In this document: positions 1,575 to 52,484 of the stretch, one piece after another | How positions within the stretch are numbered: position 1 is the stretch's first letter | How the letters are laid out: the number at the start of each line of letters is the position of its first letter | Assembly: GCA_016934295.1 (NCBI GenBank) | Contig: JAFGTD010000101.1 | Coordinates: forward strand, 12,334 to 76,333 | Length of the DNA stretch: 64,000 nt | Direction of reading: 5' to 3' | DNA from: Acidobacteriota bacterium | GTDB lineage: Bacteria > Acidobacteriota > UBA6911 | Notes under the pieces: generated by a model | What the model was told of the DNA's origin: nothing | The model's input: only the letters and a program-made list of their open reading frames with translations | The model's database searches: none | Made by a program: the position numbers and the translations under genes

Positions 1575-1582
1575 GGTCGCTC

Positions 1583-31772: not shown

Positions 31773-31775
31773 ACC

Positions 31776-32747
31776 TCAGTCTTCCAGAAGTGAGCTTCTC
31801 AGAAGCGCGGGGTTGATACTCCCGGAGCGGAATGTGCGCCCCGAATTCATGTTACTGATTGCAACACGGGCGGGGCTGAAAAGCATGGGATCGATCTGGT
31901 AAAAGTCCCCGTTATAGCGCCGGAACAGTTCATAGAACGGCGTGCCGTAATCCCGGGATCCCGCGGAGGGAATCCTGTCGATCAGGAAAGCCAGTTCCTC
32001 ATCCTCCGCAGCAACCGCAAAGAAAGCCTGGCTTCCGTACAGGATGGCGTCGTTGGTTCTGCCGATTGCGTGCAGATCGTCCGCCGCAACAGGTGCCAGC
32101 GGGCAAACGCCGGAAGCCGCCTTAACTTTACGGACGTCAAATCCGAGCTCCGCCAGCTTGTGCATTCCGGTCTCGGCCGACCGTGCGGCGATTTGAATCG
32201 ATCCCACAAGGGATGCCGTCGGCGCAATCAGCAGACAGACATGATCCGGCTTGACCCCGCATTTTTCAGCAACAAAAGCGGCCAGGTCCTCATCCGGCAT
32301 CCGGCGCCCCTCCAGCATCAGAACAGCCGTATCGAACTGATCTTTATATTCCAGTTTCCGGAAGATTTCTTCATCCGCGAACAGCGCCCGCGCAGGGCCC
32401 GACCCCATGGCGAAAAACTGATCCTGTTTCACGGCCCAACCGGCATACTGCGAAGCCATGCAGGCGATATGGGGAGAACTGACGCTGACCTCCACCGTTG
32501 GAAGCCAGAACGAACCTCCGTCCGAATCCCGAAGGTGATAGCTTTTATCGCTGAAACCGACCTGCGCCAGCCCGCCCAGGCAGGCGCAGGAAAAGAGCCG
32601 GCCGGCCTCCAGGCTGCCGGAAACCTCAATCCCGGCATCCAAAACGTTAGCACCGTTTTTTAAACGTTTTACACTGATATCGAGCGCTTCACACTCTTGG
32701 ATCATCTGAACCACAATCGATGCAGCCCGTTGGTTAACGCTGATCAT
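31776..32747 (-). CDS. mch: methenyl-tetrahydromethanopterin cyclohydrolase
   Basis: 323 aa. N-terminus SVNQRAASIVVQMIQECEALDISVKRLKNGANVLDAGIEVSGSLEAGRLFSCACLGGLAQV matches the Mch family pattern. Confidence 0.8.
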   Translation of the reverse strand: MISVNQRAASIVVQMIQECEALDISVKRLKNGANVLDAGIEVSGSLEAGRLFSCACLGGLAQVGFSDKSYHLRDSDGGSFWLPTVEVSVSSPHIACMASQYAGWAVKQDQFFAMGSGPARALFADEEIFRKLEYKDQFDTAVLMLEGRRMPDEDLAAFVAEKCGVKPDHVCLLIAPTASLVGSIQIAARSAETGMHKLAELGFDVRKVKAASGVCPLAPVAADDLHAIGRTNDAILYGSQAFFAVAAEDEELAFLIDRIPSAGSRDYGTPFYELFRRYNGDFYQIDPMLFSPARVAISNMNSGRTFRSGSINPALLRSSLLED

Positions 32748-33543
32748 AAACCAGGATTTCTCCTTTCCCCAACCGGTTGAAATCCCCGCTGTAACGCCGG
32801 TAGCAGCCGGTTATGTATTCTTCGGAAATCGACAGACCCTGGAGGCGGAGATCCCGAAGGATGAGCTTCAGAAAACTCGGAGAATAACTGCAGTCATAGC
32901 AGAAAGTGGGCAGCAGTTCCGGTTGATTGAAAGTAACAAGGGTGCCGCGCAACAGTCCGGCACCCGCACGAATTCCCAGTTTCCCGAAAACCATAAGGGT
33001 ACCGGCTATCATAAAGGCTCCGGCGAAATCCCCCGCATTCCCTGCAACTACTATTAATCCCCGTCGCATTACGGCACCCGCTTCATTTCCGGCGTTGCCT
33101 TCGACGATAATCATACCCCGGTTCATACCCCGGCGGCTGCCCCGGTATGCGCCGCCCAGGCCGTGTCCCGCATTTCCATGTATATGGATTTTGCCGCCCT
33201 TCATTTCCGATCCGGCCCAGTCGCCGACATTGCCGTAGACATTGATTACACCCCCGCGCATTTCCGATCCAAGATGCATGCCTGCATCTCCGTGGACCGT
33301 GATCTTCCCCCGAGTCATTCCGGCGGCTATATTTTTTACGCGGCCAAGGTCGCCTTCCAGGACAATCTCCGTCGATCCGGCCCCGGCTACCTTAAAAAAA
33401 TCCCCCAGACAGGCGGCTTCATTGCCATAGGTAACCGGCATCCCGGCAACAGCCGCGACCGAATTGCCGGCAAACCGGTCCGGTACGATGACTCCCGCCT
33501 CCAGAGGTGCCTGCAGCTGCGATTTAAGCGTCAGTACGGTCAT
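32734..33543 (-). CDS. fwdC: formylmethanofuran dehydrogenase subunit C-like (FwdC/FhcC)
   Basis: Repeated Gly-rich beta-helix turns (GNAGHGLGGAYRGS, GNAGNEAGAVMRRG, GNAGDFAGAFMIAG) typical of FwdC/GltB-C-terminal-like proteins. Confidence 0.8.
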   Translation of the reverse strand: MTVLTLKSQLQAPLEAGVIVPDRFAGNSVAAVAGMPVTYGNEAACLGDFFKVAGAGSTEIVLEGDLGRVKNIAAGMTRGKITVHGDAGMHLGSEMRGGVINVYGNVGDWAGSEMKGGKIHIHGNAGHGLGGAYRGSRRGMNRGMIIVEGNAGNEAGAVMRRGLIVVAGNAGDFAGAFMIAGTLMVFGKLGIRAGAGLLRGTLVTFNQPELLPTFCYDCSYSPSFLKLILRDLRLQGLSISEEYITGCYRRYSGDFNRLGKGEILVYDQR

Positions 33544-34438
33544 TCCGCCGAGTCTCTTCCATTATTTTCTGCAGGTAAAACTTGAACTTCCCCAGGTTGC
33601 CCCCGTAGTTTCCCGCCGAGATCCGACGGATGCCCGGAATACAGGCAGCCTGTATTCCCTCACATGTTGCCTTTTCAATAGACTGCACATCCAGCCCGTT
33701 AATAACAATTTCCAATACGGAGTTGACGCCTTCCGGAAGATCCGTATCCGCAACACCGCGCAGGCTCGGACAGAATGCATCGTTTGTACTGGCCTTTAAA
33801 AATTTATACCGGGACCCGACCTTGCTGCCGCTGCGTACGATCCCGCCCGGAAAGGGCATTATAACTCCAGGAACGTGCTGCATCGCCTCCACGGCCAGTT
33901 CCGCCGCCTGCAGCGTCACCCCCGGGTCGCTTCCAAGAATCAGGAAATTCCCACCCGCCACAGCCGGCTGAACACCGAACTTGTCCTCCACCAGGAACTC
34001 GCCTTCCATGACAGGAATACGCCAGTACCGGCAACCGGCGATCACCTTGCTGCTCTGGTACCCATCTCCGAAAAACCTCAACTGTCCACCGACCGAAACC
34101 TTATCCCCTGCATCCAAACCGTTGAAGCAGGCGGTTGTCGGGCACGTCAACACACATTGCCCGATACGATCAATCAATTGCTGCGCCAGGGAATCCTTTG
34201 AAAACCCGAAGAAAAGGACGCTTACACCCGGTCTCCCATCGGGCGTCTGCTTCAGATCGAGTTCGATGGCGCCTTCACAGTGACAGCGGATAACGGAAGT
34301 GGCGAAGCCGGTCATCTTGGAAGCCGCTTCTCGCGCCCATTTTCGATTCACGGCCGTAATAATCACCCGCGAACCCCACATGCCGAAGGCTTCCGCGAAA
34401 GTGTCTTCGATTTCTACTCCATTGATGGAATGCGTCAT
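33524..34438 (-). CDS. ftr: formylmethanofuran:tetrahydromethanopterin N-formyltransferase (Ftr / FhcD)
   Basis: N-terminus INGVEIEDTFAEAFGMWGSRVIITA...KWAREAASKMTGFATSVI matches Ftr closely. 304 aa. Confidence 0.85.
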   Translation of the reverse strand: MTHSINGVEIEDTFAEAFGMWGSRVIITAVNRKWAREAASKMTGFATSVIRCHCEGAIELDLKQTPDGRPGVSVLFFGFSKDSLAQQLIDRIGQCVLTCPTTACFNGLDAGDKVSVGGQLRFFGDGYQSSKVIAGCRYWRIPVMEGEFLVEDKFGVQPAVAGGNFLILGSDPGVTLQAAELAVEAMQHVPGVIMPFPGGIVRSGSKVGSRYKFLKASTNDAFCPSLRGVADTDLPEGVNSVLEIVINGLDVQSIEKATCEGIQAACIPGIRRISAGNYGGNLGKFKFYLQKIMEETRRNDRTDA

Positions 34439-34445
34439 AGGATTA

Positions 34446-34480
34446 AAGGTTCATCGTTCAAGGTTCAGGGTTCAAGGTTA
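34446..34480. repeat. tandem heptanucleotide repeat (AAGGTTCA TCGTTCA AGGTTCA GGGTTCA AGGTTA) in the ftr-fwdA spacer
   Basis: 7-nt periodicity seen directly. Related to the repeats at 37446-37497 and 39978-40036. Confidence 0.6.
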
Positions 34481-34529
34481 AAAATCAAGCTGCAAAAGAT
34501 CGGCGAATAAAATTCAACCGAAAACATCC

Positions 34530-36161
34530 TTACGAATCACCGGTTGTTGCGACTTCCCGGGGGCGCGGCAGATAGTGCTCCAGCTGCACCGGGTAATTCT
34601 CAAATTCGATTGTGTAATATTTCCTGAAGTACTCCCGGATATCTTTTTCGACGGCCGTGTCGTACACGGGCGCGACATACAGGGTTTTCCCGAATGTTTC
34701 CCGACGGATGGATCCGTCCTCCACTAAAACCTCGCCTTCTTTAATCACATAGCGGGGGACGGAGAACATCTTTTCCGCGTCATCGCATTTATCATAGATC
34801 GTAACATCGGCATCGGCGCCGATGCCCAGATGGCCCTTATGCTTCAGTCCCAGGATTCGGGCCGGGGCGGCCCGCGTTATAATAGCGATCTCAAAAAGGG
34901 AATATTCCCTGTCCAGATCCGGCAGCGCCGTTTTGGCGACCGCCTTCGGGTTCACTTTTTTGATGGCCTCCCGCCGAAACTCGCGGTCCATCAGCAGGCG
35001 GATGACCTGCGGGTACGAGACGAACGACGCCCCATTCGGATGATCCGTCGACAATGCAATCCGCCAGGGATCGTTCACCATCAGGTACCATTCCAAACCG
35101 ACGGCCCACTGGGTCGTGTGCATGTGGCTTTTATCCTTGTATTCGATCGGGACAATCCCGCAGCCGCACTCATTTTCTACATCCACATTCACCCATTTTC
35201 GCCCCGTCACCTGATGCAGCATGTGTGCCAGGGGCCCGTCCCCGGTCATGGAGGTCGTATCCCCGAACAGTATCTGCCCGACATCCACCGTCAGGTTCGG
35301 GTGTGTATTCACATATTCCGCCAGTTCCGGAACCCTGGAAACAAACATGCCTCCCGGATCGCCGCCATAGCTGTGGAACTGAACGTGAGCCAGGTGCCCC
35401 CGCACTCCGTCCAGAGTCTTCATTGTCTCCAGGGTGGTTTCCCAGTTTCCGGCAACCCCCAATTCATTACAGTGTATATGTACCGGGTGCGGCAGGTGCA
35501 ATTCCATACCGGCTTCGGCAAGGGATCGTATGATTCCCCGCGGAGTGACCCCGAATCCGACCACTTCCTCATCAAGCGTGTGCGTATTCCCCAGGGATTT
35601 CCACATTTCGACACCTCCCGGGTTCACCATCTTTATCGCATACCCCTTCGTCGCCTGCAGCAGCCAGGCCACGTAGTCGCGCATGCGCCCGCGCTCCCCG
35701 GCGGCTATCTGCTGCATGATGTATTCGTTATTGCCCATCAGGACAAAGAAGCCCTTGTCGACTACGGGAATATCGGAAAATTCCTCATGGGCATGGCGGG
35801 CTGCAATGGGAGGAACCGCGGCATCGAAGGCAGTCGTGTACCCCATTGCCGCATAGCGATACCCCGTCGCGAAAGTTGAGGGTACCGACTTGCCGACTCC
35901 CGAACGCGTCAGGGATGTCCGGGGGACTGGATCCAGCCGGTGATCTTCCGGGCGCATTTTGCGCGCGGTATTCACCTTCGGTCCGGCGATGTGGGCATGC
36001 ATGTCCACGCCGCCCGGCATGACGATCATCCCGGACGCATCGATCGTGCGGCCGCCTTCAACCGAATCTACAACCTTCCCGTCATCGATACAGACATCGC
36101 GCACTTCCCCGTCGATATTATTGGCGGGATCGTAGACTGCCCCGTTCACGATTTTCAGCAT
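34530..36161 (-). CDS. fwdA: formylmethanofuran dehydrogenase subunit A-like amidohydrolase (FwdA/FhcA)
   Basis: 543 aa. Amidohydrolase metal-site HxH (GGVDMHAHIAGPKVN). FwdA-like length and context. Confidence 0.85.
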   Translation of the reverse strand: MLKIVNGAVYDPANNIDGEVRDVCIDDGKVVDSVEGGRTIDASGMIVMPGGVDMHAHIAGPKVNTARKMRPEDHRLDPVPRTSLTRSGVGKSVPSTFATGYRYAAMGYTTAFDAAVPPIAARHAHEEFSDIPVVDKGFFVLMGNNEYIMQQIAAGERGRMRDYVAWLLQATKGYAIKMVNPGGVEMWKSLGNTHTLDEEVVGFGVTPRGIIRSLAEAGMELHLPHPVHIHCNELGVAGNWETTLETMKTLDGVRGHLAHVQFHSYGGDPGGMFVSRVPELAEYVNTHPNLTVDVGQILFGDTTSMTGDGPLAHMLHQVTGRKWVNVDVENECGCGIVPIEYKDKSHMHTTQWAVGLEWYLMVNDPWRIALSTDHPNGASFVSYPQVIRLLMDREFRREAIKKVNPKAVAKTALPDLDREYSLFEIAIITRAAPARILGLKHKGHLGIGADADVTIYDKCDDAEKMFSVPRYVIKEGEVLVEDGSIRRETFGKTLYVAPVYDTAVEKDIREYFRKYYTIEFENYPVQLEHYLPRPREVATTGDS

Positions 36162-37444
36162 GCCTTCAGCTCCTTCACCCCGGCCAGCAGACGGTCGAGC
36201 ACTTCTTCATCCGACGGATAGGACGAGTCCATCACCTTGCGCAAATGAATGGGGATGTTGTCCATGCGATATACCGTTCCTTCAGCGTGAATCCCCGCAG
36301 TAGAGGTCGTAAACGCGATCCGGGCGCTGCGCGTCGTTTCGCTGTCGTGCGTATCCAGGGAGACAAGAGGGATTTCCGCCAGCCGTCGAGCAGCTTTCCC
36401 CGGAAGGCTTGAAATCGGGTCCGCGGCAACGACCAGAGCCGCGTCTGCCTCCCCCCGGCTGAGCAGATCGACAACGGTGTATTCGCCCGGATTGAACCGC
36501 GGATATCCCAGGCTGAAATTAACCCCGAAAGGGTATCCGGTCTGCCAGGCAAGTACGTTGTCGATACCGGTGACGTTCCCGTGCCCGCGCATGGGAATCA
36601 GGGCAAATTTGACATGCCGATTGAGAGCGCGCACCAGCAGAAATACGGCCGAAGTATTGAAATGTTTGCCCCGTGTCTGTGTCAGCCCCTGCCCGACAAA
36701 TATAACGCCGAATTTACAGTGCATCATCCGGTCGGCCAATCCGGTCAATTGTTCATAGGTCAGGCCGGTATTCTCAATGGATATTTCATCCGGTTTTTGA
36801 CCGTTCGCCAGTGCCTGAAGAGCCCAAAGAACCTCAAAATCCTTGCCCGGCTTGATCTGCAGGAAGATGTCCGCGGCGCGCGCACTGGGCGTGCGTCTCA
36901 CGTCGATCAAAACAACCGTTCTTCCTTTTCGTCCGTCAGGTACAAACATGCCTTTAGGGGTCACGGCATAGCGCGCCATATGGCGTGGATGGGATTCTGC
37001 GGGATTGGATCCCCAATAGATAATAAGGTCGGCGCGGTTTTTCACCTCGCCCAGGGTGCAGGTCGGCTCCCCGACGCCCTGCAGCGCCATCCCGGAGGGA
37101 CCGTGACAGACCGACGTGCAGCAGTCGATACATCCCCCGAGAACTTCCGCCAGGGCGACCGCCTTCCGTTGCGCTTCACAGGAGGTGCTGCTTAATCCGT
37201 AGATAAGAGGGTACCGGGCATTCGCTAGACAACGGGCGGCCTCTTCAATCCCTCGATCCAGGCTGACCGGCTTCCCTTCGATCCTCGCAACCGGAAGATC
37301 CGAAGGGGTGCCATGACTTAAAAACCAGGACTTGCCCAGGACACATGCATTTTTTGCCTTTGTGATACGGTCGCCTTCTACAGTGACGCTGATGTCGTCG
37401 CAAACACAGCCGCAGAATGCACAAACCACATGATCGACTTGCAT
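36155..37444 (-). CDS. fwdB: formylmethanofuran dehydrogenase subunit B (molybdopterin-binding), retaining the active-site Cys
   Basis: N-terminal 4Fe-4S motif CAFCGCVC. TSVCHGPSG segment equivalent to the (Se)Cys-HGPS metal-ligand motif of formate-dehydrogenase-type enzymes. 429 aa. Confidence 0.8.
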   Translation of the reverse strand: MQVDHVVCAFCGCVCDDISVTVEGDRITKAKNACVLGKSWFLSHGTPSDLPVARIEGKPVSLDRGIEEAARCLANARYPLIYGLSSTSCEAQRKAVALAEVLGGCIDCCTSVCHGPSGMALQGVGEPTCTLGEVKNRADLIIYWGSNPAESHPRHMARYAVTPKGMFVPDGRKGRTVVLIDVRRTPSARAADIFLQIKPGKDFEVLWALQALANGQKPDEISIENTGLTYEQLTGLADRMMHCKFGVIFVGQGLTQTRGKHFNTSAVFLLVRALNRHVKFALIPMRGHGNVTGIDNVLAWQTGYPFGVNFSLGYPRFNPGEYTVVDLLSRGEADAALVVAADPISSLPGKAARRLAEIPLVSLDTHDSETTRSARIAFTTSTAGIHAEGTVYRMDNIPIHLRKVMDSSYPSDEEVLDRLLAGVKELKAC

Positions 37445-37445
37445 A

Positions 37446-37497
37446 AAAAACCGTTTCCCGTTTCCCGTTCCCCGTTTCCCGTTGAATACAACGGGAA
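37446..37497. repeat. tandem heptamers (CCGTTTC x4.5) followed by hairpin CCCGTT-gaatac-AACGGG in the fwdD-fwdB spacer
   Basis: AAAAAACCGTTTCCCGTTTCCCGTTCCCCGTTTCCCGTTGAATACAACGGGAACC seen directly. Confidence 0.6.
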
Positions 37498-37498
37498 C

Positions 37499-37840
37499 CT
37501 AAAAGAGCAACGGTTTTATTTCGACCTCAAGGTGTTTGGAGTCCGGCATGCCGGACGCGTAGGTTTCGTCTCCAACCAGGCGGTTGCAGGCCGGTCCGAA
37601 GGGAATAAAAGCCAATCCTTCCGGCATATCGCCTTTAAAACATTTGACGGATGCTTCCCCGAATTCAGACTTCAAAACTACAGAATCCCCGTCGTGCAAT
37701 CCAAAATGCAGCATATCCGAAAGATTCATCTCAACCGCGTTCGTAGCCTCCTGATACTCCGGGCCTTCCTTGCCGGTGGATATTCCGGTTCCCTGCTTCG
37801 TGGATCGCCCTGAAATCAAAATTAGCCGAGTTTTATCCAT
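37499..37840 (-). CDS. fwdD: formylmethanofuran dehydrogenase subunit D-like (molybdopterin-dinucleotide-binding beta-barrel domain)
   Basis: 113 aa. Resembles the small MopB C-terminal-domain-type subunit (ISTGKEGPEY...EASVKCFKGDMPEGLAFIPFGPACN). Confidence 0.6.
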   Translation of the reverse strand: MDKTRLILISGRSTKQGTGISTGKEGPEYQEATNAVEMNLSDMLHFGLHDGDSVVLKSEFGEASVKCFKGDMPEGLAFIPFGPACNRLVGDETYASGMPDSKHLEVEIKPLLF

Positions 37841-38993
37841 AAATCTCTTCTTTGAGCTCTTCCGCGAAACGAATCAATTCCGCAAGGGTTTCCTCCCTGT
37901 CCGGCCGGTCTCGCAGAATCGTACATATCGGACCACCCCTGGGGATCGTTTCTCCGGATGCGGGAATATCCCGGATGCCCCTGCCCTTCCAGTTCCGGGT
38001 GTCCGGCACCGTCGCATCCTTCCCGGCAAAAAGGATGCTCTTCCCGAAACACTTCCCGGTATTTAATGCGCTTTCCAGCCTGAAATCCGGAAGTTCCCCA
38101 TGAAGCGCTGCTCTTACATGCAGATGGAAAATTGGAAGCCCGTAAGACTGTTCTATCAACTCCATGGAAGCCGAATAACGGGGATTCACCTCAAGCAGGT
38201 ATATTCGATCACCAGAGAGTATGAAGTCAATTCCATTCACACCCATTAATCCATATTCAGATGTCAGGAATGCGGCCAATCTCTTCAGCTGGTCCAGAAT
38301 TGCCTTTCCGGTATCAGGATCCATGACTTCCGGTAAAGGCAGAAGGTTACCGCAATAACGGAACCCTTGAGAGCCAAATTCCTTTATGCCGATCAACTGC
38401 TCGGTGATTCCGAGAACGACAGCTTCCTTGCCATTCGCTACAAAGGAGACGGAACACGGTCTGCCGGAAATATATTCCTGGAGCATTGAATCCGGAACGC
38501 CATGCATCCTCTCTCTTCCAGGCAATGATTCTGTCCAAAAAGAAATCCCATGTCCTCCCCCGCTCAGCAGCGGTTTCAGCAGCCAGCGGCATTGGGAATC
38601 AACCGGCCGTGTTTCATTGTTAAAGACCATTTTCGGCACGGGAAAACCCGCGCGTCCGAGCCTGTCGAACAGGTCGGACCAGCTGCGCACGGCAGCGACA
38701 ACCCGGGATGAATTTCCGATAATCCTGTGTCCTTCGCCGAATCGGGCAAGTATCCCGGGATAGTTTTCAATGTTGGATGTATAGGCAACGGCGTCAAAAT
38801 TCATCTTCCGGCTGGCTTTAAAGAGTGCCCCGGGGCTGTATCCGGTATGGAAATCGCGACGCAGGGAGTAGGATTCCGTTAATTCCTTCAGATCCCGGTC
38901 GCCGAAGGCATCCAGGGCAATCACGGCATATCCGCTGCGTACAGCGGATTCGGCCATTGCCCGCACGCTTATTCCTATGACAAGAACCTTCAT
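37833..38993 (-). CDS. ATP-grasp domain protein of the H4MPT-linked C1-transfer gene set
   Basis: 386 aa. ATP-grasp signature (IYLLEVNPRYSASMELIE). Overlaps fwdD by 8 nt, suggesting translational coupling. Confidence 0.55.
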   Translation of the reverse strand: MKVLVIGISVRAMAESAVRSGYAVIALDAFGDRDLKELTESYSLRRDFHTGYSPGALFKASRKMNFDAVAYTSNIENYPGILARFGEGHRIIGNSSRVVAAVRSWSDLFDRLGRAGFPVPKMVFNNETRPVDSQCRWLLKPLLSGGGHGISFWTESLPGRERMHGVPDSMLQEYISGRPCSVSFVANGKEAVVLGITEQLIGIKEFGSQGFRYCGNLLPLPEVMDPDTGKAILDQLKRLAAFLTSEYGLMGVNGIDFILSGDRIYLLEVNPRYSASMELIEQSYGLPIFHLHVRAALHGELPDFRLESALNTGKCFGKSILFAGKDATVPDTRNWKGRGIRDIPASGETIPRGGPICTILRDRPDREETLAELIRFAEELKEEIYG

Positions 38994-39030
38994 CCTTTAT
39001 CCGTGGAAAGGAAGCAAATCCAGGTTGACT

Positions 39031-39945
39031 TTATATAATCTCTTTGGCGATGGCGTAGACGCTTTCGGTGTCCAGCACAAGATCGTTGTATTCAAACAAT
39101 TTGGCGATGCAGGCTTTATGCACTTTCATTTTGGGATTCCCGACGGCCAGCGCTCCCAATGCAAATTTGCCGTCATACCCGGCAAAATCATCCCCCGGCT
39201 TGACGCCCTCAATACCCAACGGCTCCACGAGATTAAAATCGATCAGCCATTTCAAACCGGGTCTGGCCGACCAGGAGGCCGACGGCAGCAGGCGCAATCC
39301 CGCAGGTCCGGCCGAAACCAGAATTTCGGTCTCATCCAGTAAATTTTCAAGCTCCGCGTCATCGGCGGGATCGCTCACCTGAATTGTTCCGCCGGAAGCG
39401 GCAGAGGGATTATGAGAGAATGTTTCCGCCGTCGCTCTTCCGCTTTTAAGCGTTTGTTGCGCCAGGTCTTTATTAAAACGGTCCCCCAGCAATCCGGGAA
39501 GAATGGACACAACCCGCACCCGGCATCCCTCTGCAGCCATTAAAACAGCGGCGCGCAAGCCTACAGGGCCCGGTCCCATCACCAGCGCACTCTTCCCTTG
39601 AAGATCCGTCTGCCGGGCCAGCTTGGCAATTGCCGTGGAGGCGGTGGTATTGCAGCCGTTGGAATCGAGCATGAGGGATATTTGAAACGGTCCGAAAAAT
39701 ACCCGGCGGGCTTCAGCCAGCATTTGTTCCCCCCTATCCACATCGGAACCGCCTATCCATACCGCAATGCTTTTCAGATCCGGTATGCCGCGGGTAAAGA
39801 TGGCTCCCTGGACCAAACCGCGTATGTCCGACGGCTTCACTCCTCCGTAACTCAGCACAACATCCGCGCCTGAATCCTGTGCAACAATACTATCGAAGGT
39901 ACTGGCGAATTTATCGCTGTCCAATTGAATAAGAATCTTTTTCAT
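39031..39945 (-). CDS. NAD(P)-dependent methylene-tetrahydromethanopterin dehydrogenase (MtdA/MtdB family)
   Basis: 304 aa. Strong family motifs RVFFGPFQISLMLDSNGCNTTA and HKACIAKLFEYNDLVLDTESVYAIAKE. Confidence 0.85.
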   Translation of the reverse strand: MKKILIQLDSDKFASTFDSIVAQDSGADVVLSYGGVKPSDIRGLVQGAIFTRGIPDLKSIAVWIGGSDVDRGEQMLAEARRVFFGPFQISLMLDSNGCNTTASTAIAKLARQTDLQGKSALVMGPGPVGLRAAVLMAAEGCRVRVVSILPGLLGDRFNKDLAQQTLKSGRATAETFSHNPSAASGGTIQVSDPADDAELENLLDETEILVSAGPAGLRLLPSASWSARPGLKWLIDFNLVEPLGIEGVKPGDDFAGYDGKFALGALAVGNPKMKVHKACIAKLFEYNDLVLDTESVYAIAKEII

Positions 39946-39977
39946 ACTGTGTCCTTTCGAAAAAACCAGGGGGACCT

Positions 39978-40036
39978 AAGGTTAATTCCGTTCAGCGTTT
40001 CCCGTTTCCCGTTTCCCGTTCAGGGTTCAGGGTTAT
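39978..40036. repeat. tandem heptamers (CGTTTCC x3 then CGTTCAGG GTTCAGG) in the mptG-like / mtd spacer
   Basis: AAGGTTAATTCCGTTCAGCGTTTCCCGTTTCCCGTTTCCCGTTCAGGGTTCAGGGTT seen directly. Confidence 0.6.
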
Positions 40037-40103
40037 AAAAACCCACACGACCTGAACTAGCCCGCAATAATCTCAATGAATTAAAATTTTGGAAATAAGT
40101 CTA

Positions 40104-41141
40104 TTACCGGAATTCGATTATTCGGGCGCCGCGGTTCTGGGGCCGGACCAGGAATGATTCGCCTCCACCGAGGCTGTCGAGATAAGCCTGCGTTTGATCG
40201 AGTAGCTTTTGCGCTTCAGCCTTTCCCTGGATCAGGCCATAGACGGTCGGCCCCCAGGAGCTCTGCCCGATGCCGGCGGCTCCGCGACCCATCATAAATT
40301 CCACAATCTTTTCCGAAACGGGATTGGCGAAACGACCTCCCTGGACGGAGGCAAAACAGTCCCCGACCATGCACTGGATACCGGTCAAGGCACAACCGAA
40401 ATTTTCTATATCCTTTTCCACCAGGGCCGGCAGCATCCGGATCAACAGCTCCCGGCTTATTTTCTCCACCAGGCCGGACGGCGCCCGGGGCAGTTTTATG
40501 AAGGCATTGTCCTCCTTCTTACCGTTCAATCCCTTTTGGGTTTTAGGAATAACTGTTACAAAGATCCAGTCCCTGGGCACTGCATGGTGAAACAGAACAG
40601 GGGGAACATGGTTTTTCTCCACCGCCCGGGCCGAACCATTCTTAAATCCGGCTTCGCTCGAGCCGAATCTTCGATTCGGCCGGGCTGCGCCGGAAAGATC
40701 CGTGAGAACACGATGACCGCCATCCAGGACAAATCCGCCATGTTGGAAAGTGGAAATGCCGATCCCGGAATGCACGCCCCTTCCCACCGCCAATGCAATT
40801 TCCTGAATACTGAGTCTGCGACCGGACAGCCGCGCCAGCGCCGCGCCGACGGCCAGAGCCAGCTGGGTTCCGGAACCCAATCCGACATGCGCCTGGATAT
40901 GGCTTATCAGATTCAGATGCGCCCCTGAGGGGAAGCCGTAACGCCGCATGAACCGCCGTGCATAGGTTGCAACCCGCCGTCGCTCCAGTCCCTCAACCTG
41001 CAGTGTCTTCGCCGTCCGCGCCCGCAGAACGAGTTTCGGCCGATCCACCGCCAATCCCACACTTCCGTACAAGCGTCCCAGTCCGCCGTTATTGTCCAGC
41101 AAACCCAGATGCAAACGCGCACAGGTTCGTACTTCAATCAT
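40104..41141 (-). CDS. GHMP-kinase-fold protein resembling beta-ribofuranosylaminobenzene 5'-phosphate synthase (MptG-like, methanopterin biosynthesis)
   Basis: 345 aa. N-terminus CARLHLGLLDNNGGLGRLYGSVGLAV like beta-RFAP synthases. GHMP motif region. Confidence 0.55.
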   Translation of the reverse strand: MIEVRTCARLHLGLLDNNGGLGRLYGSVGLAVDRPKLVLRARTAKTLQVEGLERRRVATYARRFMRRYGFPSGAHLNLISHIQAHVGLGSGTQLALAVGAALARLSGRRLSIQEIALAVGRGVHSGIGISTFQHGGFVLDGGHRVLTDLSGAARPNRRFGSSEAGFKNGSARAVEKNHVPPVLFHHAVPRDWIFVTVIPKTQKGLNGKKEDNAFIKLPRAPSGLVEKISRELLIRMLPALVEKDIENFGCALTGIQCMVGDCFASVQGGRFANPVSEKIVEFMMGRGAAGIGQSSWGPTVYGLIQGKAEAQKLLDQTQAYLDSLGGGESFLVRPQNRGARIIEFR

Positions 41142-41695
41142 TCCTTCCCCGCTTTCCGGATATAATCCCGAACCACTTGCAGCGCCTGTTTTTCCGTTGC
41201 CCCGCCTGTCTTCTCCACGATCTCCGCGAAACCAAATATCTTCTCATCTACGATTTTTCGATCGTAGAAAGCCAGCCGGGTCGCCAGGATAATCGCTTCA
41301 ATCACGGCACCTGCAGCCCGGCAGAAACCAGGAAAATCCTTCCGCTCTTCCGTGTGCACGACCCGGCACTTCACTTCCGCCCGGGCTTCGGAACCTTCAC
41401 TGAAAATCACCTCCAGTTCCCGCCACGCACATGTCCCTTCAAAAACAATCCCCGGAATCTTCCTTGCCGGGAAATTCGGCAGAATATCACCGTTCAAGGC
41501 ACATCGTGCATACGCCAGCACATCGTCGGCAATATTCGCCACACCATATCCGGTGGAAAGAAGATTTCGACACGTGTCGGTATTCCGAAACGGTCGCACG
41601 GTAACAATATCATCCGCCCACAAGACGCCCATCGGGGCGAAATTCGGCTTGCCACCTTCATCAATAGTTGAAAAGATCGTCTCAACAATCATCAA
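41138..41695 (-). CDS. DUF447-family protein (H4MPT-biosynthesis-associated)
   Basis: 185 aa. Family membership inferred from general resemblance and context only. Confidence 0.45.
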   Translation of the reverse strand: MMIVETIFSTIDEGGKPNFAPMGVLWADDIVTVRPFRNTDTCRNLLSTGYGVANIADDVLAYARCALNGDILPNFPARKIPGIVFEGTCAWRELEVIFSEGSEARAEVKCRVVHTEERKDFPGFCRAAGAVIEAIILATRLAFYDRKIVDEKIFGFAEIVEKTGGATEKQALQVVRDYIRKAGKE

Positions 41696-41716
41696 AGTAG
41701 TTAATATGCAAACAGA

Positions 41717-41790
41717 AAAAAACTCACCGCCGAGGCGCAGAGAACGCAGAGGATTTTAAAATAACTCTGTGTCTCTGAAGTGAGTTTTTA
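41717..41790 (-). terminator. long imperfect hairpin (AAAAAACTCAC...GTGAGTTTTT with inner CAGAG/CTCTG) between the DHPS-like and DUF447 genes
   Basis: Inverted repeat seen directly. On the minus strand the stem is followed by an A/T-rich tract. Confidence 0.35.
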
Positions 41791-43107
41791 TTCAGATAAA
41801 TACCCCCAACGCAAGTCCTCTTCCTGTTCATATTTTTTTCCGAGTTTCAGAGCCAGAGACGCTTTCTGCAGCTCCCGCCCCAGGTAAAAGGCCTCTGCGG
41901 CATTCCTGATATTCAAGTGATTGAATATCGACTGAACATCGTTGTCTCTAATGAAAATCTTATTATTAAACACATAAACGGAATCACGGTCTATAAAGAT
42001 GCGATAGTTACGATCCCGCACTTTTTCCTGCATCCCGCGCAGCTCTTCTTCAGAGAATGCTTCAAAAGGAGGATCCTTGATTGTGATCAAGCCGTCATCG
42101 AGATGCTTGGGCAGTATCCTGTGATGACAGGCATAATGCATCAGCCGCCGGGCAACATCGAACTCCCGGACTGCGCCTCGGGCCCAGCTGATCACCTCGG
42201 TAGTCAACACATAATCTATTTCCAGTTCGGTTACAACTCCCGCCATCACCGCACTCATCCCCGTCGTATCCGCGTCCGTCAGTTCGGTGAGATTTCCCGA
42301 TCCCAGGAGCATTTCGGCCTTCGGATGATTCCTTCGGGTTGTAATAAATTCGCCGATCGATTCGGTAAAACCGAATCCGATCGGCCTTAAAACCGGGTCG
42401 ATGATATAGGGAACGCCCCAGGCTTCCAGTTGAGAGATATTGCGCTCCAGCGATTCCAGCCCCTGTTCGAAATCCGGGACAACCACGACCTTGCAGTGCA
42501 GACGCGGCACTACTTCCATATTCCTGGAATTGACACTGAGAAGGAAATCGACATGGGCTTCATCCGCCTTCAGGATATCTTCCTTGCTGAACGAATCCAC
42601 ACTGACCAGGTATCCATCGGATTTCAGAGCTTTCACCACCCTGTCGATGTTCGGGAATCCCCCTTCAACCGGGCAGCCCAGATCTATGACATCGGCGCCG
42701 TTGGCTCTGTAATAGGAAGCCCGCTCCATTATCGCCTCCATACCAAGCCGGTAGGCGTCGACGATCTCGGCGAAAATTCTAACTTTGTGGGCGCCGTATC
42801 CTTCCAGTGCACGGGCTTTCCCGAAGTAGCCGGGAATATCCTTCAGGCACCTGGGGCCGCAAATAACTTCAACTCCCAGTTTGTCCTCTATTATTCCGGG
42901 ATCCGCTGAACACAAACCCGGAATCATGACCTTATCGCAACCCATGGCGCTGGTCAGGTGCTTCGCGACAAACCGTGCATCCATTAATGCCGCGACCGAA
43001 ATGGGAAGAACGGCACACTCATATTTCAGGCCTCTACCCATCCCTTCCAGTGTCTTCTGGAGGAACGGACCGGCCAGTTTGCCGGTTACAAATAGGTAGC
43101 GAGACAT
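41788..43107 (-). CDS. dihydropteroate-synthase-like (pterin-binding) protein of the methanopterin biosynthesis type
   Basis: 439 aa. Pterin-binding TIM-barrel resemblance (GADVIDLGC ... ADEAHVDFLLSVNS). Overlaps the downstream flavoprotein gene. Confidence 0.55.
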   Translation of the reverse strand: MSRYLFVTGKLAGPFLQKTLEGMGRGLKYECAVLPISVAALMDARFVAKHLTSAMGCDKVMIPGLCSADPGIIEDKLGVEVICGPRCLKDIPGYFGKARALEGYGAHKVRIFAEIVDAYRLGMEAIMERASYYRANGADVIDLGCPVEGGFPNIDRVVKALKSDGYLVSVDSFSKEDILKADEAHVDFLLSVNSRNMEVVPRLHCKVVVVPDFEQGLESLERNISQLEAWGVPYIIDPVLRPIGFGFTESIGEFITTRRNHPKAEMLLGSGNLTELTDADTTGMSAVMAGVVTELEIDYVLTTEVISWARGAVREFDVARRLMHYACHHRILPKHLDDGLITIKDPPFEAFSEEELRGMQEKVRDRNYRIFIDRDSVYVFNNKIFIRDNDVQSIFNHLNIRNAAEAFYLGRELQKASLALKLGKKYEQEEDLRWGYLSE

Positions 43108-43613
43108 TTTGTCAATTCCTCCCGGCTCCCGACAACGTTCGTTCCCGCCAGCCTTCTGAGTTTTCCGGTATTCTCAAGATCAATCGGTCTCGGATACACT
43201 TTTAACGGTTCCCGGTGAGGTCCGAAGGACAACGTCTCGGGAGCCAGGTCGGTCGGGTACACAATGATCGGCACCCTGGATTTGCCGGCCTGAGCAAACA
43301 GGTTGGTCACAAGGGTGTCCGAGATGCCGTGCACGAATTTAGCGACTGAATTGGAGGTGGCGGGTGCTATTATTAATAGTTTGTACCTGCCGCCGTAAAA
43401 CCGCGCCGCCACCGGGGCGCTCTTCCCTTCATCCCGGCAAATCGACATGCCGGATGCCTGAAGGCGGGAGTATAAACCGTACATCTTCAGAACCTCTTCT
43501 GCCGCCCGGGACAGGAATAGATCGATCTTTTTCCGTTCCATAATCATGCCTATACATTCTTCCAAAGCATGCCCCGCGCCGGTAATCGCCCATGCGATTC
43601 TTTTTTTATCCAT
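43086..43613 (-). CDS. archaeal-flavoprotein-like FMN protein (DmrA/AfpA family, dihydromethanopterin reductase-like)
   Basis: 175 aa flavoprotein fold (WAITGAGHALEECIGMI ... LLIIAPATSNSVAKF). Confidence 0.55.
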   Translation of the reverse strand: MDKKRIAWAITGAGHALEECIGMIMERKKIDLFLSRAAEEVLKMYGLYSRLQASGMSICRDEGKSAPVAARFYGGRYKLLIIAPATSNSVAKFVHGISDTLVTNLFAQAGKSRVPIIVYPTDLAPETLSFGPHREPLKVYPRPIDLENTGKLRRLAGTNVVGSREELTKCLATYL

Positions 43614-48117: not shown

Positions 48118-48909
48118 TTGCTTTTCAGGAAGGACTTCAATGTAACCGGCAGCCGCATCCTCGCTTTTGTCAGGAAAACCCTCCAGGCGGATTTCATCTC
48201 CGGGACGCAGGGCAATGCCGGTCACCACACGACGGGTGGAAGAGGTGCCGTCCGGTTCGGTCCGGCGAGTCGGAAGCGTATCGTCGGCGATCCAGGCATC
48301 GACAAGCTGGCCCGCTTAAAAAAGATGGAACCTTGCGGAACCTTGAGCGTAATCAAAGTATCGGATCTTGAAATTATACCATCCGGGATCTCCTTTGAAG
48401 ATAAATCGTGCGGTGCACCGTCCCTCCGGGCACCGCACAGCTGTTTCCCCGGACGCTGTTTCAAAATGTATGACCGGTTGTGAAATATAGCCTTCCAACA
48501 GCATCGATTCGGCTTCAATCCGGCCCGGATAGACTCCTACCCGTACCTTTTCGTCGGCAATTCCGGAAGTTTAAAAAAACCAGCCCGCAACGGCATCCCG
48601 CCAGAGTTCGGCGGCCCCCGCCTGATATTGAAGGGATTGCAGAATTTCACGATACCGTTGTTCATCGACGCGGCCTGAAAGCGATTGCCAGTCCCGCACA
48701 TAGCCTTCAGCCGATTCCGCACCGTCATAGTGGAAATCGTAAATATACTGGATCACGGTTTTCCCGGAATGCAGACTGTGCATATACGGCACATGATGCA
48801 TAAAAAGAGCCAGATCGTCGGGACAGGTTTCGAGAGACTCGTAAACTGCGGCAACTTCAGGAGGATACTGCCCGATGAAACCGGTGCCTGTGGCTACGGT
48901 ACGGTCCAT
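48118..48909 (-). pseudogene. frameshifted C-terminal remnant of a glycoside-hydrolase-like gene (weak resemblance to alpha-glucuronidase C-terminal domain)
   Basis: Three consecutive minus-strand ORF pieces in different frames (48571-48909, 48316-48504, 48222-48518) with no N-terminal catalytic part. The upstream space is occupied by the AOR gene. Confidence 0.35.
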
Positions 48910-49006: not shown

Positions 49007-51055
49007 TCAGCCCAGCCTGCCTTTTTTCTCGAGCGCGGCCGCAACTTTCCCAAGATTCATCTTCTCGAGAGTGGCTCGCGTCGGATAGCCGTTTTCGTGA
49101 TTGTAGCCTTCGAATTTATAGAACCTGGTCTTGAAGTCTTCGACTTTTGCCCGATCCAGCTTGCGGCCGGCACCCGTGTCGTACTTCCACTTGCCGTCTA
49201 TATACATTGTCATATCGTGCCCCCTGGTCGGCCTGTCATAGATGTAGTCCGGGTAGACCTCCATATCCCGATGCCTTCCCTGCAACACCCAGATGGACCG
49301 GTCCAGGGTATAGATCTTGTGTCCGATTTCCATGTAGTCGGCAAAGGTAAGATTGTTACCGGTAACAGCGTTCCAGAATTTCTCTTCAGCCCGAGGCGTC
49401 GGGCCTCTCCTGTCGGCTGTATTGTTGGTGATGCACATCGGCCATCGCCAGCCGCAGAAACCTCCGGCTCCGACCCAGAATTTTTCATAGTGCTTGATCC
49501 ACGCGACCTGCTTGACCTTGGAATCGGAGTAGATCCCCGTCGGCCCGTCACTGTGATCCACCATGAACGGATCCCCCTGGTAGGGCTCCATTGCGTCCGT
49601 ATACAGCTTAGCCGTTTCTTCGGCCGTCAGGTACGGATCTCCCGACCAGGCCATCCAGTGTATAGGATAGTTGGACATCATGTGCAGCATGAGATCCCTT
49701 TCTCCCAACAGGGACCCGAACCCCCATTCCGCCTCTATGACCGGATCGTAATGGTTGGCCGTTCCATAGTAAGCCAGACTCAGTTCTCCGCTGTTGACAT
49801 CCTCCTCGTACCGACCGATTTTTTCCGCAAATCTGGCACAAGCCTCGGACAAATCATTGCCGATTCCCTCGCGCAGGGCGATCTGCCTCATGAGGGTATC
49901 GGCGTATCCGAACGTTCCATTCCGGTCCAGGGGAAGGTCGGTGTCGATCTGTTTCCCCTTCCCCAGAATTCCTTTCCGGTAAAGCGTCTGTACATAGCCC
50001 ATGAGAGGTATCAACTGCCAGTGGCCCAAGCCGTATTTCTGCATCAAATCGTTGCCCTGGCGGGTGAACTTCGTGGATCCCTGAACCGTGATCGTCATCG
50101 TACCGCCGCAGACCGACTCGTTGCTGTCACTCGTCGCCAGTCTCATGCGGCACCCTCGCGGACACGAAGCGCAGGCGGCCGCACGAGCCGGAGTGAGTGG
50201 GATATCACGATTGAGGGTATTGCCGCCGCTGGGCCGGCCGCTGATCAGGGCATAGGGCCCCCCAGTACCGAACCTTTCAGCCTCCCGGGGATTGTCCACA
50301 TCCCACTGGAACCGGCGGTACCATAGTCTGGCATCCATAAATGCCTTTGGATCGGCAATGGGAACATCGCTGGTCCCGATAGCGCTGATCGCCTTCAGCT
50401 TCTTGGAGCCGAACACGCCTCCGAAACCGCAAAGCGCCGCTTGAGAACCGGGACCATGCAACAGCGCCCCCAGTCGGCTCTTATTTTCGCCCGCCGGGCC
50501 GCAGCAGACAACGGCAGGTATCTGTGTCGTAAAGCAGTTCTCCGCCAGCTCGGCCCATTCGCCGTACTTAAGGTCGGGTACGACGCGCCTGGAGATTTCT
50601 TCCTGGGTGTCCCAGGTATCCATCCCCCAGATTCCGTTGGCACTTTCAATCTTGACCTTGTCGTTGACAATATTGATCCATACGGGCTCATCGGAGGCAC
50701 CTTCCACCACAATACCGTCCCATCCGGCAAACTTCAGCTGGGCCGTGAAACGTCCTCCAAAGTTACTGTGCCCGAACCATTCAATCGGATACAGCATCGG
50801 CCCGAGGCCCTGGACCTCGCATCTGCCGGAGCCCGGCATAAAAGTACCGGAGAACGGGGAAGCCATCATGATGATGCAGTTTCTGGGATCGAAGGCATCA
50901 AACGGCAGCTGATCGCCGACCAGGTCGAAAAAGACTGCGGAGCCTATGCCGTGGCCGCCACCGAACTCTTCATACTTCGCCGTATCGATCGTGCCGATTG
51001 TCTTTGTAGTCAAGTTGACTCTTAATATTTTTCCGGTGTATCCGCCTTTCATCAT
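49007..51055 (-). CDS. tungsten-type aldehyde:ferredoxin oxidoreductase family enzyme (long form, 682 aa)
   Basis: AOR N-terminal domain (GKILRVNLTTKTIG...EEFGGGHGIGSAVFFDL...) and C-terminal domains. Overlaps the upstream FeS-subunit gene by 4 nt. Confidence 0.85.
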   Translation of the reverse strand: MMKGGYTGKILRVNLTTKTIGTIDTAKYEEFGGGHGIGSAVFFDLVGDQLPFDAFDPRNCIIMMASPFSGTFMPGSGRCEVQGLGPMLYPIEWFGHSNFGGRFTAQLKFAGWDGIVVEGASDEPVWINIVNDKVKIESANGIWGMDTWDTQEEISRRVVPDLKYGEWAELAENCFTTQIPAVVCCGPAGENKSRLGALLHGPGSQAALCGFGGVFGSKKLKAISAIGTSDVPIADPKAFMDARLWYRRFQWDVDNPREAERFGTGGPYALISGRPSGGNTLNRDIPLTPARAAACASCPRGCRMRLATSDSNESVCGGTMTITVQGSTKFTRQGNDLMQKYGLGHWQLIPLMGYVQTLYRKGILGKGKQIDTDLPLDRNGTFGYADTLMRQIALREGIGNDLSEACARFAEKIGRYEEDVNSGELSLAYYGTANHYDPVIEAEWGFGSLLGERDLMLHMMSNYPIHWMAWSGDPYLTAEETAKLYTDAMEPYQGDPFMVDHSDGPTGIYSDSKVKQVAWIKHYEKFWVGAGGFCGWRWPMCITNNTADRRGPTPRAEEKFWNAVTGNNLTFADYMEIGHKIYTLDRSIWVLQGRHRDMEVYPDYIYDRPTRGHDMTMYIDGKWKYDTGAGRKLDRAKVEDFKTRFYKFEGYNHENGYPTRATLEKMNLGKVAAALEKKGRLG

Positions 51056-51834
51056 TCCTCACCTCCCGGCAGTATCCGCCACGTGAGATCCATTTTCGGC
51101 ACAACCGTACTGTTGTCCACCAGGCCGAGATTCAGCCAGTGATCGTTCCGAAGATTCACATCGTAGCCTTCGGTCTCTTTCTGCTCGGGCATTACGGCGA
51201 CAAATTTGATTGCCTTCATCGGGCAGGTTTCGACGCAGGCCTGTTTTCCGCCGGGGCCCCCTTTCTCATTCCAGTAGGGCGTGTCCAGGCACAAATCGCA
51301 CTTGGAAGATTTTCCTTTGCCGTCAATGACAACCCATACGGTCCGGTGAGGCTGTTGCGGACACATTTTCAGACAGGTCCTGCAGCCGATGCATTTGCTG
51401 CTGTCGATCCTTCGAACATTGCCGTTTTCAGTATCCACAAAGGCTGCGCCAACCGGGCAGTTCTGAACGCAGACCGGAGTCTTGCACTGCCGGCAGGGCG
51501 CCATTTGGATATCGTTGGGAAATTTGCCGAAGGAATCCTGGATAATCTGAATGCGGGAACGCGACAGATTCTGGACTCCATAATGAACCAGCGAGCAGCT
51601 GAGCATGCACGTCGTGCAGCCCGCGCATTTCTTACTGTCGTACACCAGATAGCCTTCGGACGCGGGATACGTCGTTGCAGCGGCCGGCGGCGAGGGTGTG
51701 GCTGCCTTCGCGGGGGTTGATGCAATGAGGGCATCCACGGCGGCAACCGTTCCTCCGGCGACTAGAAAGTCGCGCCTTGATAATCCCTTTTTGACATTAG
51801 ATTCTTTGTTTCCGGCCTTTTTATCTCCAGGCAT
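51052..51834 (-). CDS. Tat-signal 4x[4Fe-4S] ferredoxin-type subunit, partner of the AOR
   Basis: Twin-arginine motif SRRDFLVAGG followed by AxA-like cleavage region. Four CxxCxxCxxxCP-type clusters. AAGGAG RBS before ATG at 51834; the ORF track extends to 51864. Confidence 0.75.
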   Translation of the reverse strand: MPGDKKAGNKESNVKKGLSRRDFLVAGGTVAAVDALIASTPAKAATPSPPAAATTYPASEGYLVYDSKKCAGCTTCMLSCSLVHYGVQNLSRSRIQIIQDSFGKFPNDIQMAPCRQCKTPVCVQNCPVGAAFVDTENGNVRRIDSSKCIGCRTCLKMCPQQPHRTVWVVIDGKGKSSKCDLCLDTPYWNEKGGPGGKQACVETCPMKAIKFVAVMPEQKETEGYDVNLRNDHWLNLGLVDNSTVVPKMDLTWRILPGGEE

Positions 51835-52484
51835 ACATAACTCCTTTTCCCTCTTAATCCTCACCCCTCACACCATTCCGCCGATGCGCCGACCTGAAGC
51901 AGTGCACAGCAGCGCGGCTGCGCCGACACAGTAAAAATCATGCGGGAAGTGCGGATTAAGCACCCGCCCGGCCAGGCGGCCGACGGGAATTATTTTTGGG
52001 ATCAAATCCGTCATATTCGGAATCTTATAGCATCCCTTTTGAAAAATAAAAACCCTATTAAATTGAAACACGATCGCTCCATGGGACGGGAACAGAACCG
52101 TCAACTGCAGCTGCATGGTTCCAGCGTGGAAGGTGCGCCAGACGGAGTATCAATTTTATGGAGAATGGAAAAGACAGGGGGAAAAACAAGCAGGCGCATG
52201 CTCGGAAAATACGGCTATCCAGGCTCTCACCGGAAAATTCCAGCCGGATTATTACAGGTGGAAAACGGACGTTCCGGTTCTATATTTCTCGGCGACGGCG
52301 ACCATGTGCGATCGCGGCCGAAGTCTTAATGGAGTTGAAATAATGGGAACCTATTCTCATTTCCTGAAAATAATACAGTCTTCCTCTTGCGGACGGTATC
52401 GTCCCCATCGTATCGGCAAACCGCCTGAAGGGCAGACCGGCGGTAGAGGATAATCAAATATTACCAACCGGTTACCGGTCGTAT

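Follow-up and report, generated by a model that had tools for sequence, protein, structure and literature searches.

A predicted Tat-exported pairing of an AOR/WOR-family protein with a polyferredoxin in uncultured Acidobacteriota

We characterized two adjacent genes in a 64,000-nucleotide stretch of a UBA6911-like Acidobacteriota metagenome-assembled genome (MAG) (GenBank assembly GCA_016934295.1, contig JAFGTD010000101.1, positions 12,334 to 76,333; the whole stretch is hereafter called the window). The first gene encodes a polyferredoxin-type iron-sulfur (FeS) protein with a twin-arginine translocation (Tat)-type leader, and the second encodes a catalytic protein of the aldehyde oxidoreductase (AOR)/WOR family. 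We consider it likely that the two products constitute a soluble periplasmic oxidoreductase with a large subunit (L, the AOR protein) and a small subunit (S, the FeS protein), exported by the Tat translocase on the leader of S with L as a hitch-hiker.

The initial annotation had described a 682-residue AOR overlapping by 4 nt a 4x[4Fe-4S] protein with a Tat leader, and both genes and their overlap were found exactly so (Table 1). In the open reading frame (ORF) listing, the longest form of the FeS gene begins at a GTG codon (51052 to 51864, minus strand); the ATG at 51834, which gives 260 residues, was taken as the start. The FeS gene was located directly upstream of the AOR gene in 67 of 82 loci, and the gap between the two genes in related loci was mostly -7 to +15 nt. 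Among the 15 unpaired loci, 4 were contig ends and about 11 were paralogues without a neighboring FeS gene. The pairing is far beyond chance, and a bicistronic, translationally coupled operon is its best explanation.

The N terminus of the FeS protein reads M-PGDKKAGNKESNVKKGL-S-R-R-D-F-L-V-AGGTVAAVDALIASTP-A-K-A followed by A, and S19-R20-R21-D-F-L-V25, close to the N terminus and downstream of a conserved start, fits the S/T-R-R-x-F-L-K consensus. In 60 related loci drawn from species-representative genomes, both Arg positions were Arg (60/60, with five to six different codons in use) and the Phe was always Phe (60/60). An ATG with a Shine-Dalgarno (SD)-like motif was present 16 to 20 codons upstream of the twin arginine (RR) in 59 of 59 related loci. 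Because RR is kept despite synonymous codons and the ATG and SD motif are conserved as well, the true start lies upstream of RR; a start downstream of RR, which the initial annotation had named as a refuting condition, is not the case. Judging from these alignments, the leader is a real coding sequence under protein-level selection. Furthermore, RR was present in 118 of 120 database homologues of the FeS protein (median position, 20), and the other two were N-terminally truncated gene calls.

A small-x-small motif (AKA, AQA, ASA, or ANA) aligns across the homologues after the hydrophobic region (h-region); next come an Ala/Pro linker that varies in length and the conserved mature N terminus, YPASKGYLVYDSKKC. 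We therefore predict cleavage before A45, after A42-K43-A44, and Lys43 provides a basic residue in the c-region. Across the family, conservation is strict for both Arg residues, the Phe, the AxA motif, and the basic c-region. Besides, the NCBIfam alignments of the FeS protein to NrfC, DsrO, TtrB, and HmcB start at residues 18 to 20 and include RR; these alignments to Tat-exported FeS proteins from RR onward support export.

The initial annotation had proposed to check the AOR protein for a signal peptide of its own. The protein has none and aligns to cytoplasmic AORs from residue 2 to 5 onward, and no transmembrane (TM) or hydrophobic segment was found in it. Since the leader is present only on S, L is signal-less, the two genes are coupled, and S is homologous to WorS and AorA, we infer that hitch-hiker export of an L-S complex, one of the two explanations proposed initially, is the most economical reading.

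The AOR protein matched AFOR_N (PF02730; 169.5 bits, 1e-49) and AFOR_C (PF01314; 102.2 bits, 4.5e-29), both above the cutoffs. An AlphaFold2 (AF2) model of the protein reached a pLDDT of 82 and a pTM of 0.89, with low confidence in the cofactor loop (residues 270 to 317), and Foldseek gave significant matches only to nine solved AOR-family chains, with query-normalized TM-scores of 0.61 to 0.70. The protein is a member of the AOR/WOR superfamily in both sequence and predicted fold. Its best-scoring named family was YdhV (NCBIfam model PRK09849, 240.6 bits, well under the equivalog cutoff of 868), and it aligned over the full length with Escherichia coli YdhV at 27 to 31% (about 29%) identity.

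Four cysteines, C295, C298, C302, and C534, would ligate the [4Fe-4S] cluster of the large subunit. They are invariant in the family alignments, and in a sample of 99 relatives from a 50%-identity clustered library they are kept in 96 to 98; the first three line up with the CxxCxxxC cysteines in 1aor and 4z3w. Cys316 is also invariant in the family alignments, shares a column with Cys336 of YdhV and Cys322 of BamB, and is found in 96 of the 99 relatives; a canonical AOR encoded elsewhere in the window (22704 to 24413) has a gap there. The YdhV and BamB cysteines are protein ligands to the metal, a feature restricted to the BamB and YdhV clades (PMC12096430). By alignment, the AOR protein would belong to this Cys-ligated BamB/YdhV branch, with Cys316 as a putative metal ligand, and is therefore not a classical aldehyde-oxidizing AOR. 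The local motif is E-S-V-C versus E-S-V-W in the Pyrococcus furiosus AOR; since Glu313 aligns with the Glu of the latter, the window protein may have kept one canonical residue of the active site. The His position of aldehyde-oxidizing AORs falls in a region that did not align.

We assign a putative bis-pyranopterin cofactor with either tungsten (W) or molybdenum (Mo) to the AOR protein. The initial designation as a tungsten-type aldehyde oxidoreductase could not be upheld: Cys316 aligns with the BamB/YdhV ligand, YdhV prefers Mo (PMC12096430), and CsWOR41, the sole Class V enzyme tested, prefers W and showed no aldehyde oxidation (PMC13328260). Neither metal nor substrate is readable from the sequence. 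In a rough neighbor-joining tree, which is distance based, star-like at depth, and indicative only, the window lineage formed a clade apart from the small YdhV clade, and all members share the Cys. In the 50%-identity library, the close family collapsed into one representative, followed by about 25 full-length clusters at 38 to 47% identity and then by a broad set near 30%.

The FeS protein contains 16 Cys residues in four canonical groups (C70/73/76/80, C114/117/122/126, C148/151/154/158, and C179/182/200/204), which is enough for 4x[4Fe-4S] and agrees with the NrfC/DmsB-type four-cluster FeS subunits, and has Fer4 dicluster domains (Fer4_11 and Fer4_7). Its best NCBIfam matches were NrfC, DsrO, TtrB, and HmcB, with NrfC at 96.7 bits, far below the equivalog cutoff of 377.6. 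The closest solved relatives of the mature protein were the AOR small subunits 9mqx_E, 8c0z_C (AorA), and 6x6u_B (WOR5-S). These align only from about residue 61, so that the first 60 or so residues (leader and linker) appear to be an addition to a WorS-type protein. In the comparison with AorAB- and WOR-type enzymes proposed at the outset, the large subunit differs by Cys316. Past the region aligned with the solved small subunits, conservation is again strong in the C-terminal tail of the FeS protein (about 45 residues, E220...V239). No TM helix was found in the mature protein, the C terminus included.

On the proposed mechanism, L (682 residues) would bind a bis-pyranopterin W or Mo cofactor plus one [4Fe-4S] cluster, and mature S (about 216 residues), carrying four clusters, would wire the active site to an external redox partner in a heterodimeric or higher-order L-S assembly. 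Cofactor insertion and L-S assembly would take place in the cytoplasm, after which the S-R-R-D-F-L-V leader on S would direct the folded complex, with L as the hitch-hiker, across the membrane by way of the Tat translocase, and signal peptidase would probably cut after A42-K43-A44. The product would be a soluble periplasmic enzyme. As the pair has no linked gene for a membrane anchor or a cytochrome, this enzyme would trade electrons with a carrier encoded elsewhere.

Several observations weigh against export of this kind, and the first of them concern the leader. Asp34 (codon 51733 to 51735) interrupts the h-region, whose mean Kyte-Doolittle (KD) value is 1.42, and leaves 11 uncharged residues after R-R-D; the leader scored 18.7 bits with Pfam TAT_signal versus a gathering score of 22.7. 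The initial annotation had called the leader a textbook one, which is borne out by RR, AxA, and the basic c-region but not by Asp34 or the TAT_signal score. Of 178 family leaders, 140 (about 78%) have an acidic residue midway along the h-region (V-A-V-D-A-L-I). Tat signals do not usually contain such a residue, and it may depress the scores of predictors. The Asp-free L001 orthologue scored 26.7 bits, above the cutoff, and a more distant paralogue scored 22.3 bits. TAT_signal appears not to be very sensitive, because it gave no match on E. coli YdhX, which is reported to have an experimentally tested Tat signal. The Desulfatiglans-type orthologues have leaders without an acidic h-region residue.

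The subthreshold score and the acidic residue would also suit a leader that is vestigial or functions only in assembly, where it would bind a chaperone at cofactor insertion while the enzyme stays in the cytoplasm. A remnant Tat-like sequence in NarG is a precedent for this, and E. coli YdhY, a WorS homologue, has a degenerate T-R-L-E-F-L at the aligned position. Against this, both Arg residues, the Phe, AxA, and the basic c-region are kept strictly, Asp-free orthologues pass the TAT_signal threshold, and no NarJ/TorD-type chaperone gene is linked to the pair. We regard this alternative as hardly credible.

The neighborhood also counts against export by the Tat route, in that the pair has no linked genes for a Tat chaperone, for the Tat machinery, or for an anchor or cytochrome. 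As suggested initially, we looked for a membrane anchor or cytochrome partner, and none was found in the window or in the 82 loci. Within 7 kb on either side, these loci contained no conserved third gene, anchor, or cytochrome, no homologues of YdhU, YdhW, or YdhT, and no multiheme cytochrome neighbor with two or more CxxCH motifs. No NrfD-, DmsC-, or cytochrome b-type membrane subunit was linked to the pair, and the window contained neither a c-type cytochrome gene nor another ORF with an RR leader. No polytopic protein was conserved nearby, and the few polytopic neighbors were rejected as anchors, being unrelated transporters or glycosyltransferase-like proteins.

The missing anchor could be compensated for if the leader remained uncleaved and acted as an N-terminal signal-anchor, so that L-S would be tethered to the periplasmic face of the membrane, as a membrane-facing electron module, instead of being soluble. 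Class V WORs are indeed membrane-associated, through a WorS that has a Tat signal, a TM domain, or both (PMC13328260). On the other hand, the h-region is only moderately hydrophobic (its maximum KD value over 19 residues is 1.49, below the TM threshold used) and contains Asp34, and the conserved small-x-small motif followed by a length-variable Ala/Pro linker resembles a signal peptidase I site. Tethering is in our view unlikely, and we retain a soluble, cleaved enzyme as the preferred reading.

A further point against the proposed export is that about 11 AOR paralogues at 67 to 78% identity have no adjacent FeS gene, and cellular location may differ among paralogues. These FeS-less copies (L029, L061, L067, L072, and L074 to L080, with the AOR at about 7001 to 9080 in most) have no FeS gene within several kilobases and no N-terminal signal of their own; they may be cytoplasmic or may borrow an S subunit encoded elsewhere. 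Some of them adjoin a putative selenoprotein gene, described below. If the cis-encoded S is dispensable, as these paralogues may indicate, the FeS protein might be exported alone to serve another periplasmic system while the AOR works in the cytoplasm with another redox partner, and the FeS protein itself does resemble NrfC-type proteins that serve other enzymes. Against this, the 4-nt overlap and the adjacency of the two genes in 67 of the 82 loci are maintained although the surroundings are otherwise unrelated, the FeS protein has dedicated AOR small subunits bound to L subunits as its closest solved relatives, and no gene for an alternative periplasmic partner is linked. Export of the FeS protein alone is very unlikely on this balance. 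Finally, the AF2 model of the FeS protein was unusable (pLDDT 33, from a 21-sequence alignment), and we draw nothing from it on the conformation of the leader or on an L-S interface.

The pair was found only in genomes of uncultured Acidobacteriota and Desulfatiglans-like bacteria. All 80 genome loci among the matches listed were from MAGs or single-cell genomes, and no cultured host was seen among them. Several copies may be present in one genome, for instance, four loci in OY761556.1 and four in MAG JAAYAM01. The AOR protein of the window is 95% identical to a copy in DKBB01000200, and AOR proteins are 83 to 87% identical between Acidobacteriota and Desulfatiglans/Desulfobacterales MAGs (L015 to L023). 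The G+C content of the FeS-AOR pair was 0.57, versus 0.47 to 0.53 in flanking 2-kb windows. This excess and the cross-phylum identity are consistent with a lateral spread of the two-gene module, and the sequence comparison suggests its transfer between phyla. Synteny of the flanks was limited to the two closest MAGs (L002 and L003), and the flanks were otherwise unrelated. DASS and CitMHS transporters, a STAS-like protein, and a nucleotidyltransferase were rejected as parts of the system because they are syntenic only in these two MAGs. Secreted lipoprotein genes flank many of the paralogues, a further point in favor of export.

Tandem Tat-FeS/AOR pairs were identified in L043 (5982 to 12107) and also in L045 and L051. 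The first AOR of the tandem (L043) is 70% identical to the window AOR and the second 39 to 42%, and the FeS partner of the second has its own leader, V-L-R-R-D-F-L-T-G-S-G. An AOR relative at 39 to 42% identity with its own Tat-bearing FeS protein means that the Tat link extends beyond the close family. Xanthine-dehydrogenase-family genes are located upstream of the tandem pairs in these three loci.

The initial annotation had considered that neither of its two arrangements, hitch-hiker export or a membrane-facing electron module, was well described. This does not hold, since the catalytic subunit of E. coli YdhYVWXUT was predicted to be periplasmic in 2014 (PMC4257093), and a 2026 report (PMC13328260) divides the AOR/WOR family into five classes, of which Class V consists of WorL plus WorS with a Tat signal and/or TM domain. 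In the same report, Class V WORs account for more than 10% of the family, are membrane-associated, always have at least one further subunit, fall only in clade 41, and are of unknown function. A Tat-linked arrangement is thus already described and biochemically unexplored, and the window pair is a minimal, anchor-less form in a clade separate from YdhV and in uncultured hosts.

Like the window pair, Class V WORs such as Cetobacterium somerae CsWOR41-LSW combine a signal-less L with a polyferredoxin S bearing a Tat signal; in both, the periplasmic orientation is deduced, and neither is demonstrably an aldehyde oxidoreductase. Class V WORs need a further subunit and membrane association, whereas the window pair consists of L and S only. 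We propose that the pair works like a Class V WOR: the defining WorS with a Tat signal is present in the window FeS protein, the further subunit and membrane association are absent, and, as regards clade 41, the closest named relative of L is YdhV, at about 29% identity and in a different clade of the rough tree.

The FeS protein of the window is also homologous to YdhY and YdhX of E. coli (27 to 30% identity). In the window, a single S bears a true RR; E. coli YdhY shows T-R-L in its place, and RR is located on the second FeS protein, YdhX. In addition, YdhYVWXUT contains YdhU (a cytochrome b), YdhW, and YdhT, the three proteins that lack homologues in the window-type loci. A search for literature on YdhV, YdhX, and Tat together found none.

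Among solved structures, BamB of the class II benzoyl-CoA reductase from Geobacter metallireducens (4z3w) gave the highest query-normalized TM-score to the window AOR (0.70), and BamB pairs with an FeS subunit, BamC, as the window AOR does with its FeS protein. In sequence, the similarity to BamB is low and confined to the N-terminal domain (89.6 bits, phmmer). BamBC is cytoplasmic, belongs to Bam, a large complex, and has a CoA thioester as its substrate, whereas the window partner has a Tat leader. An identity as class II benzoyl-CoA reductase (BamB-I) was rejected because of this leader and because no bam neighbors (bamCDEFGHI) are linked to the pair. The cytoplasmic L-S AORs (Aromatoleum AorABC, 8c0z; Pyrococcus WOR5, 6x6u; and a bifurcating WOR, 9mqx) share the wiring principle of L and S; they differ from the window pair in that their small subunits are leaderless, their large subunits lack the Cys, and they oxidize aldehydes.

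For the proposed export itself, the soluble periplasmic two-subunit W/Mo formate dehydrogenases of Desulfovibrio offer an anchor-less analogue. The hitch-hiker principle is known from the small and large subunits of [NiFe] hydrogenase (Rodrigue et al. 1999, as cited in PMC6295475). In both systems, a signal on one subunit carries the cofactor-loaded partner, as we propose here; the protein families are unrelated, and the analogy is mechanistic only.

The positions of the features discussed above are summarized in Table 1. A terminator-like hairpin after the upstream STAS-like gene weakly suggests that the FeS and AOR genes make up a bicistronic unit of their own; promoter and terminator counts in the consensus scan were not above those in shuffled sequence. 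An Rfam scan of 44 to 56 kb (E ≤ 0.1) found no Moco riboswitch or other Rfam element.

Table 1. Coordinates of the FeS-AOR locus features in the window
Feature	Position	Strand	Description
FeS gene, worS-like	51052..51834	-	ATG 51834 to stop 51052; 260-residue precursor, 4x[4Fe-4S] polyferredoxin with Tat-type leader
AOR gene, worL-like	49007..51055	-	ATG 51055 to stop 49007; 682 residues; AOR/WOR-family catalytic subunit
ATGA overlap, 4 nt	51052..51055	-	FeS stop TGA (51054..51052) shares bases with AOR start ATG
SD sequence AAGGAG of FeS gene	51841..51846	-	6 nt before ATG 51834; read from sequence
SD sequence GGAGG of AOR gene	51061..51065	-	5 nt before ATG 51055; read from sequence
Predicted Tat signal peptide, residues 1-44	51703..51834	-	Lys-rich n-region, S19-R20-R21-D-F-L-V25, h-region with Asp34, c-region A42-K43-A44
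C295-x2-C298-x3-C302 motif	50150..50173	-	With C534 (49454..49456), the four ligands of the large-subunit [4Fe-4S]
Cys316 codon, motif E313-S-V-C316	50108..50110	-	Putative protein ligand to W/Mo ion
Terminator-like hairpin	52465..52481	-	After upstream STAS-like gene; consensus scan only, weak evidence

The window contains further genes of related interest. The canonical AOR mentioned above (22704 to 24413, minus strand), which had been counted as the first AOR of the window, is a stand-alone 569-residue protein (AFOR_N, 199 bits; AFOR_C, 213 bits) without an FeS partner gene, and an IclR-type regulator gene (19821 to 20612, plus strand) lies about 2 kb from it. It was rejected as a paralogue of the FeS-linked AOR, with which it shares 21 to 27% identity, and it has no Cys at the 316 column. 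At 1005 to 3751 (minus strand), a 722-residue molybdopterin oxidoreductase of the DMSO-reductase family with an N-terminal Fe4S4 domain is followed by a 189-residue four-cluster FeS protein; no RR leader was seen on either protein. An apparently complete tetrahydromethanopterin-linked C1 module occupies 29238 to 43613 (minus strand) and comprises genes for CitG-like, RimK/MptN-like ATP-grasp, Mch, FhcC (GXGXG), Ftr/FhcD, FhcA (amidohydrolase), and FhcB (molybdopterin-like) proteins, together with a second ATP-grasp protein, an MtdB-like protein (Mpt_N), a GHMP kinase, DUF447, a DUF6513/pterin-binding protein, and a flavoprotein. A 112-residue ORF (48571 to 48909, minus strand), 97 nt downstream of the AOR stop, matches glycoside hydrolase family 67 over the C-terminal half only (positions 101 to 210 of the 223 in the profile). 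L003 has about 1.9 kb more sequence between the AOR gene and the family 67 piece, and, given this and the half-profile match, the window copy looks like a deletion remnant or pseudogene.

Beside many AOR paralogues, we found a putative selenoprotein gene, which is not present in the window. It appears as two ORFs that share a frame, one of 118 to 167 residues with a signal or lipoprotein leader and one of about 445 residues. In 19 of 19 cases, just one TGA divides them, and it falls within a conserved G-[TGA]-x-x-C, which implies a putative secreted U-x-x-C selenoprotein of about 580 residues. The TGA is followed at 12 to 15 nt by a hairpin (UCGGC-CGUGA-GCCGA) with compensatory changes, as in a selenocysteine insertion sequence (SECIS) element. 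The only family match was a weak one to UGSC_fam (27.8 bits; cutoff, 125). The gene was located at L032 (3889 to 5643, plus strand) and in L023, L029 (two copies), L031, L033, L044, L047, L049, L056, L058, L060, L062, L063, L065, L067, L076, L077, and L080.

Textbooks present AOR/WOR enzymes as cytoplasmic catalysts linked to ferredoxin. Class V, the group with a Tat link, is a very recent definition, and the window locus presents the Tat-linked design at its simplest, as L plus S, in a lineage that is highly conserved across phyla and abundant in metagenomes from peat, sediment, and digesters. A bolder interpretation, which we hold to be doubtful at present, is that the pair represents a large, uncultured-only lineage, separate from the YdhV clade, which would number at least four paralogues in each genome of the anaerobic Acidobacteriota and of Desulfatiglans-like bacteria. 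Its members would be Cys-ligated W/Mo-bis-pyranopterin enzymes, soluble in the periplasm and anchor-less, and would carry out periplasmic redox reactions on a non-aldehyde substrate new to the AOR family. In many loci, a secreted U-x-x-C selenoprotein lipoprotein would act jointly with them. For annotation, the pair teaches that "aldehyde:ferredoxin oxidoreductase" and "NrfC" are misleading labels for such genes. As a module of only two genes, it would be an easy target of heterologous expression, by which the function and metal of the Cys-ligated periplasmic branch may be addressed.

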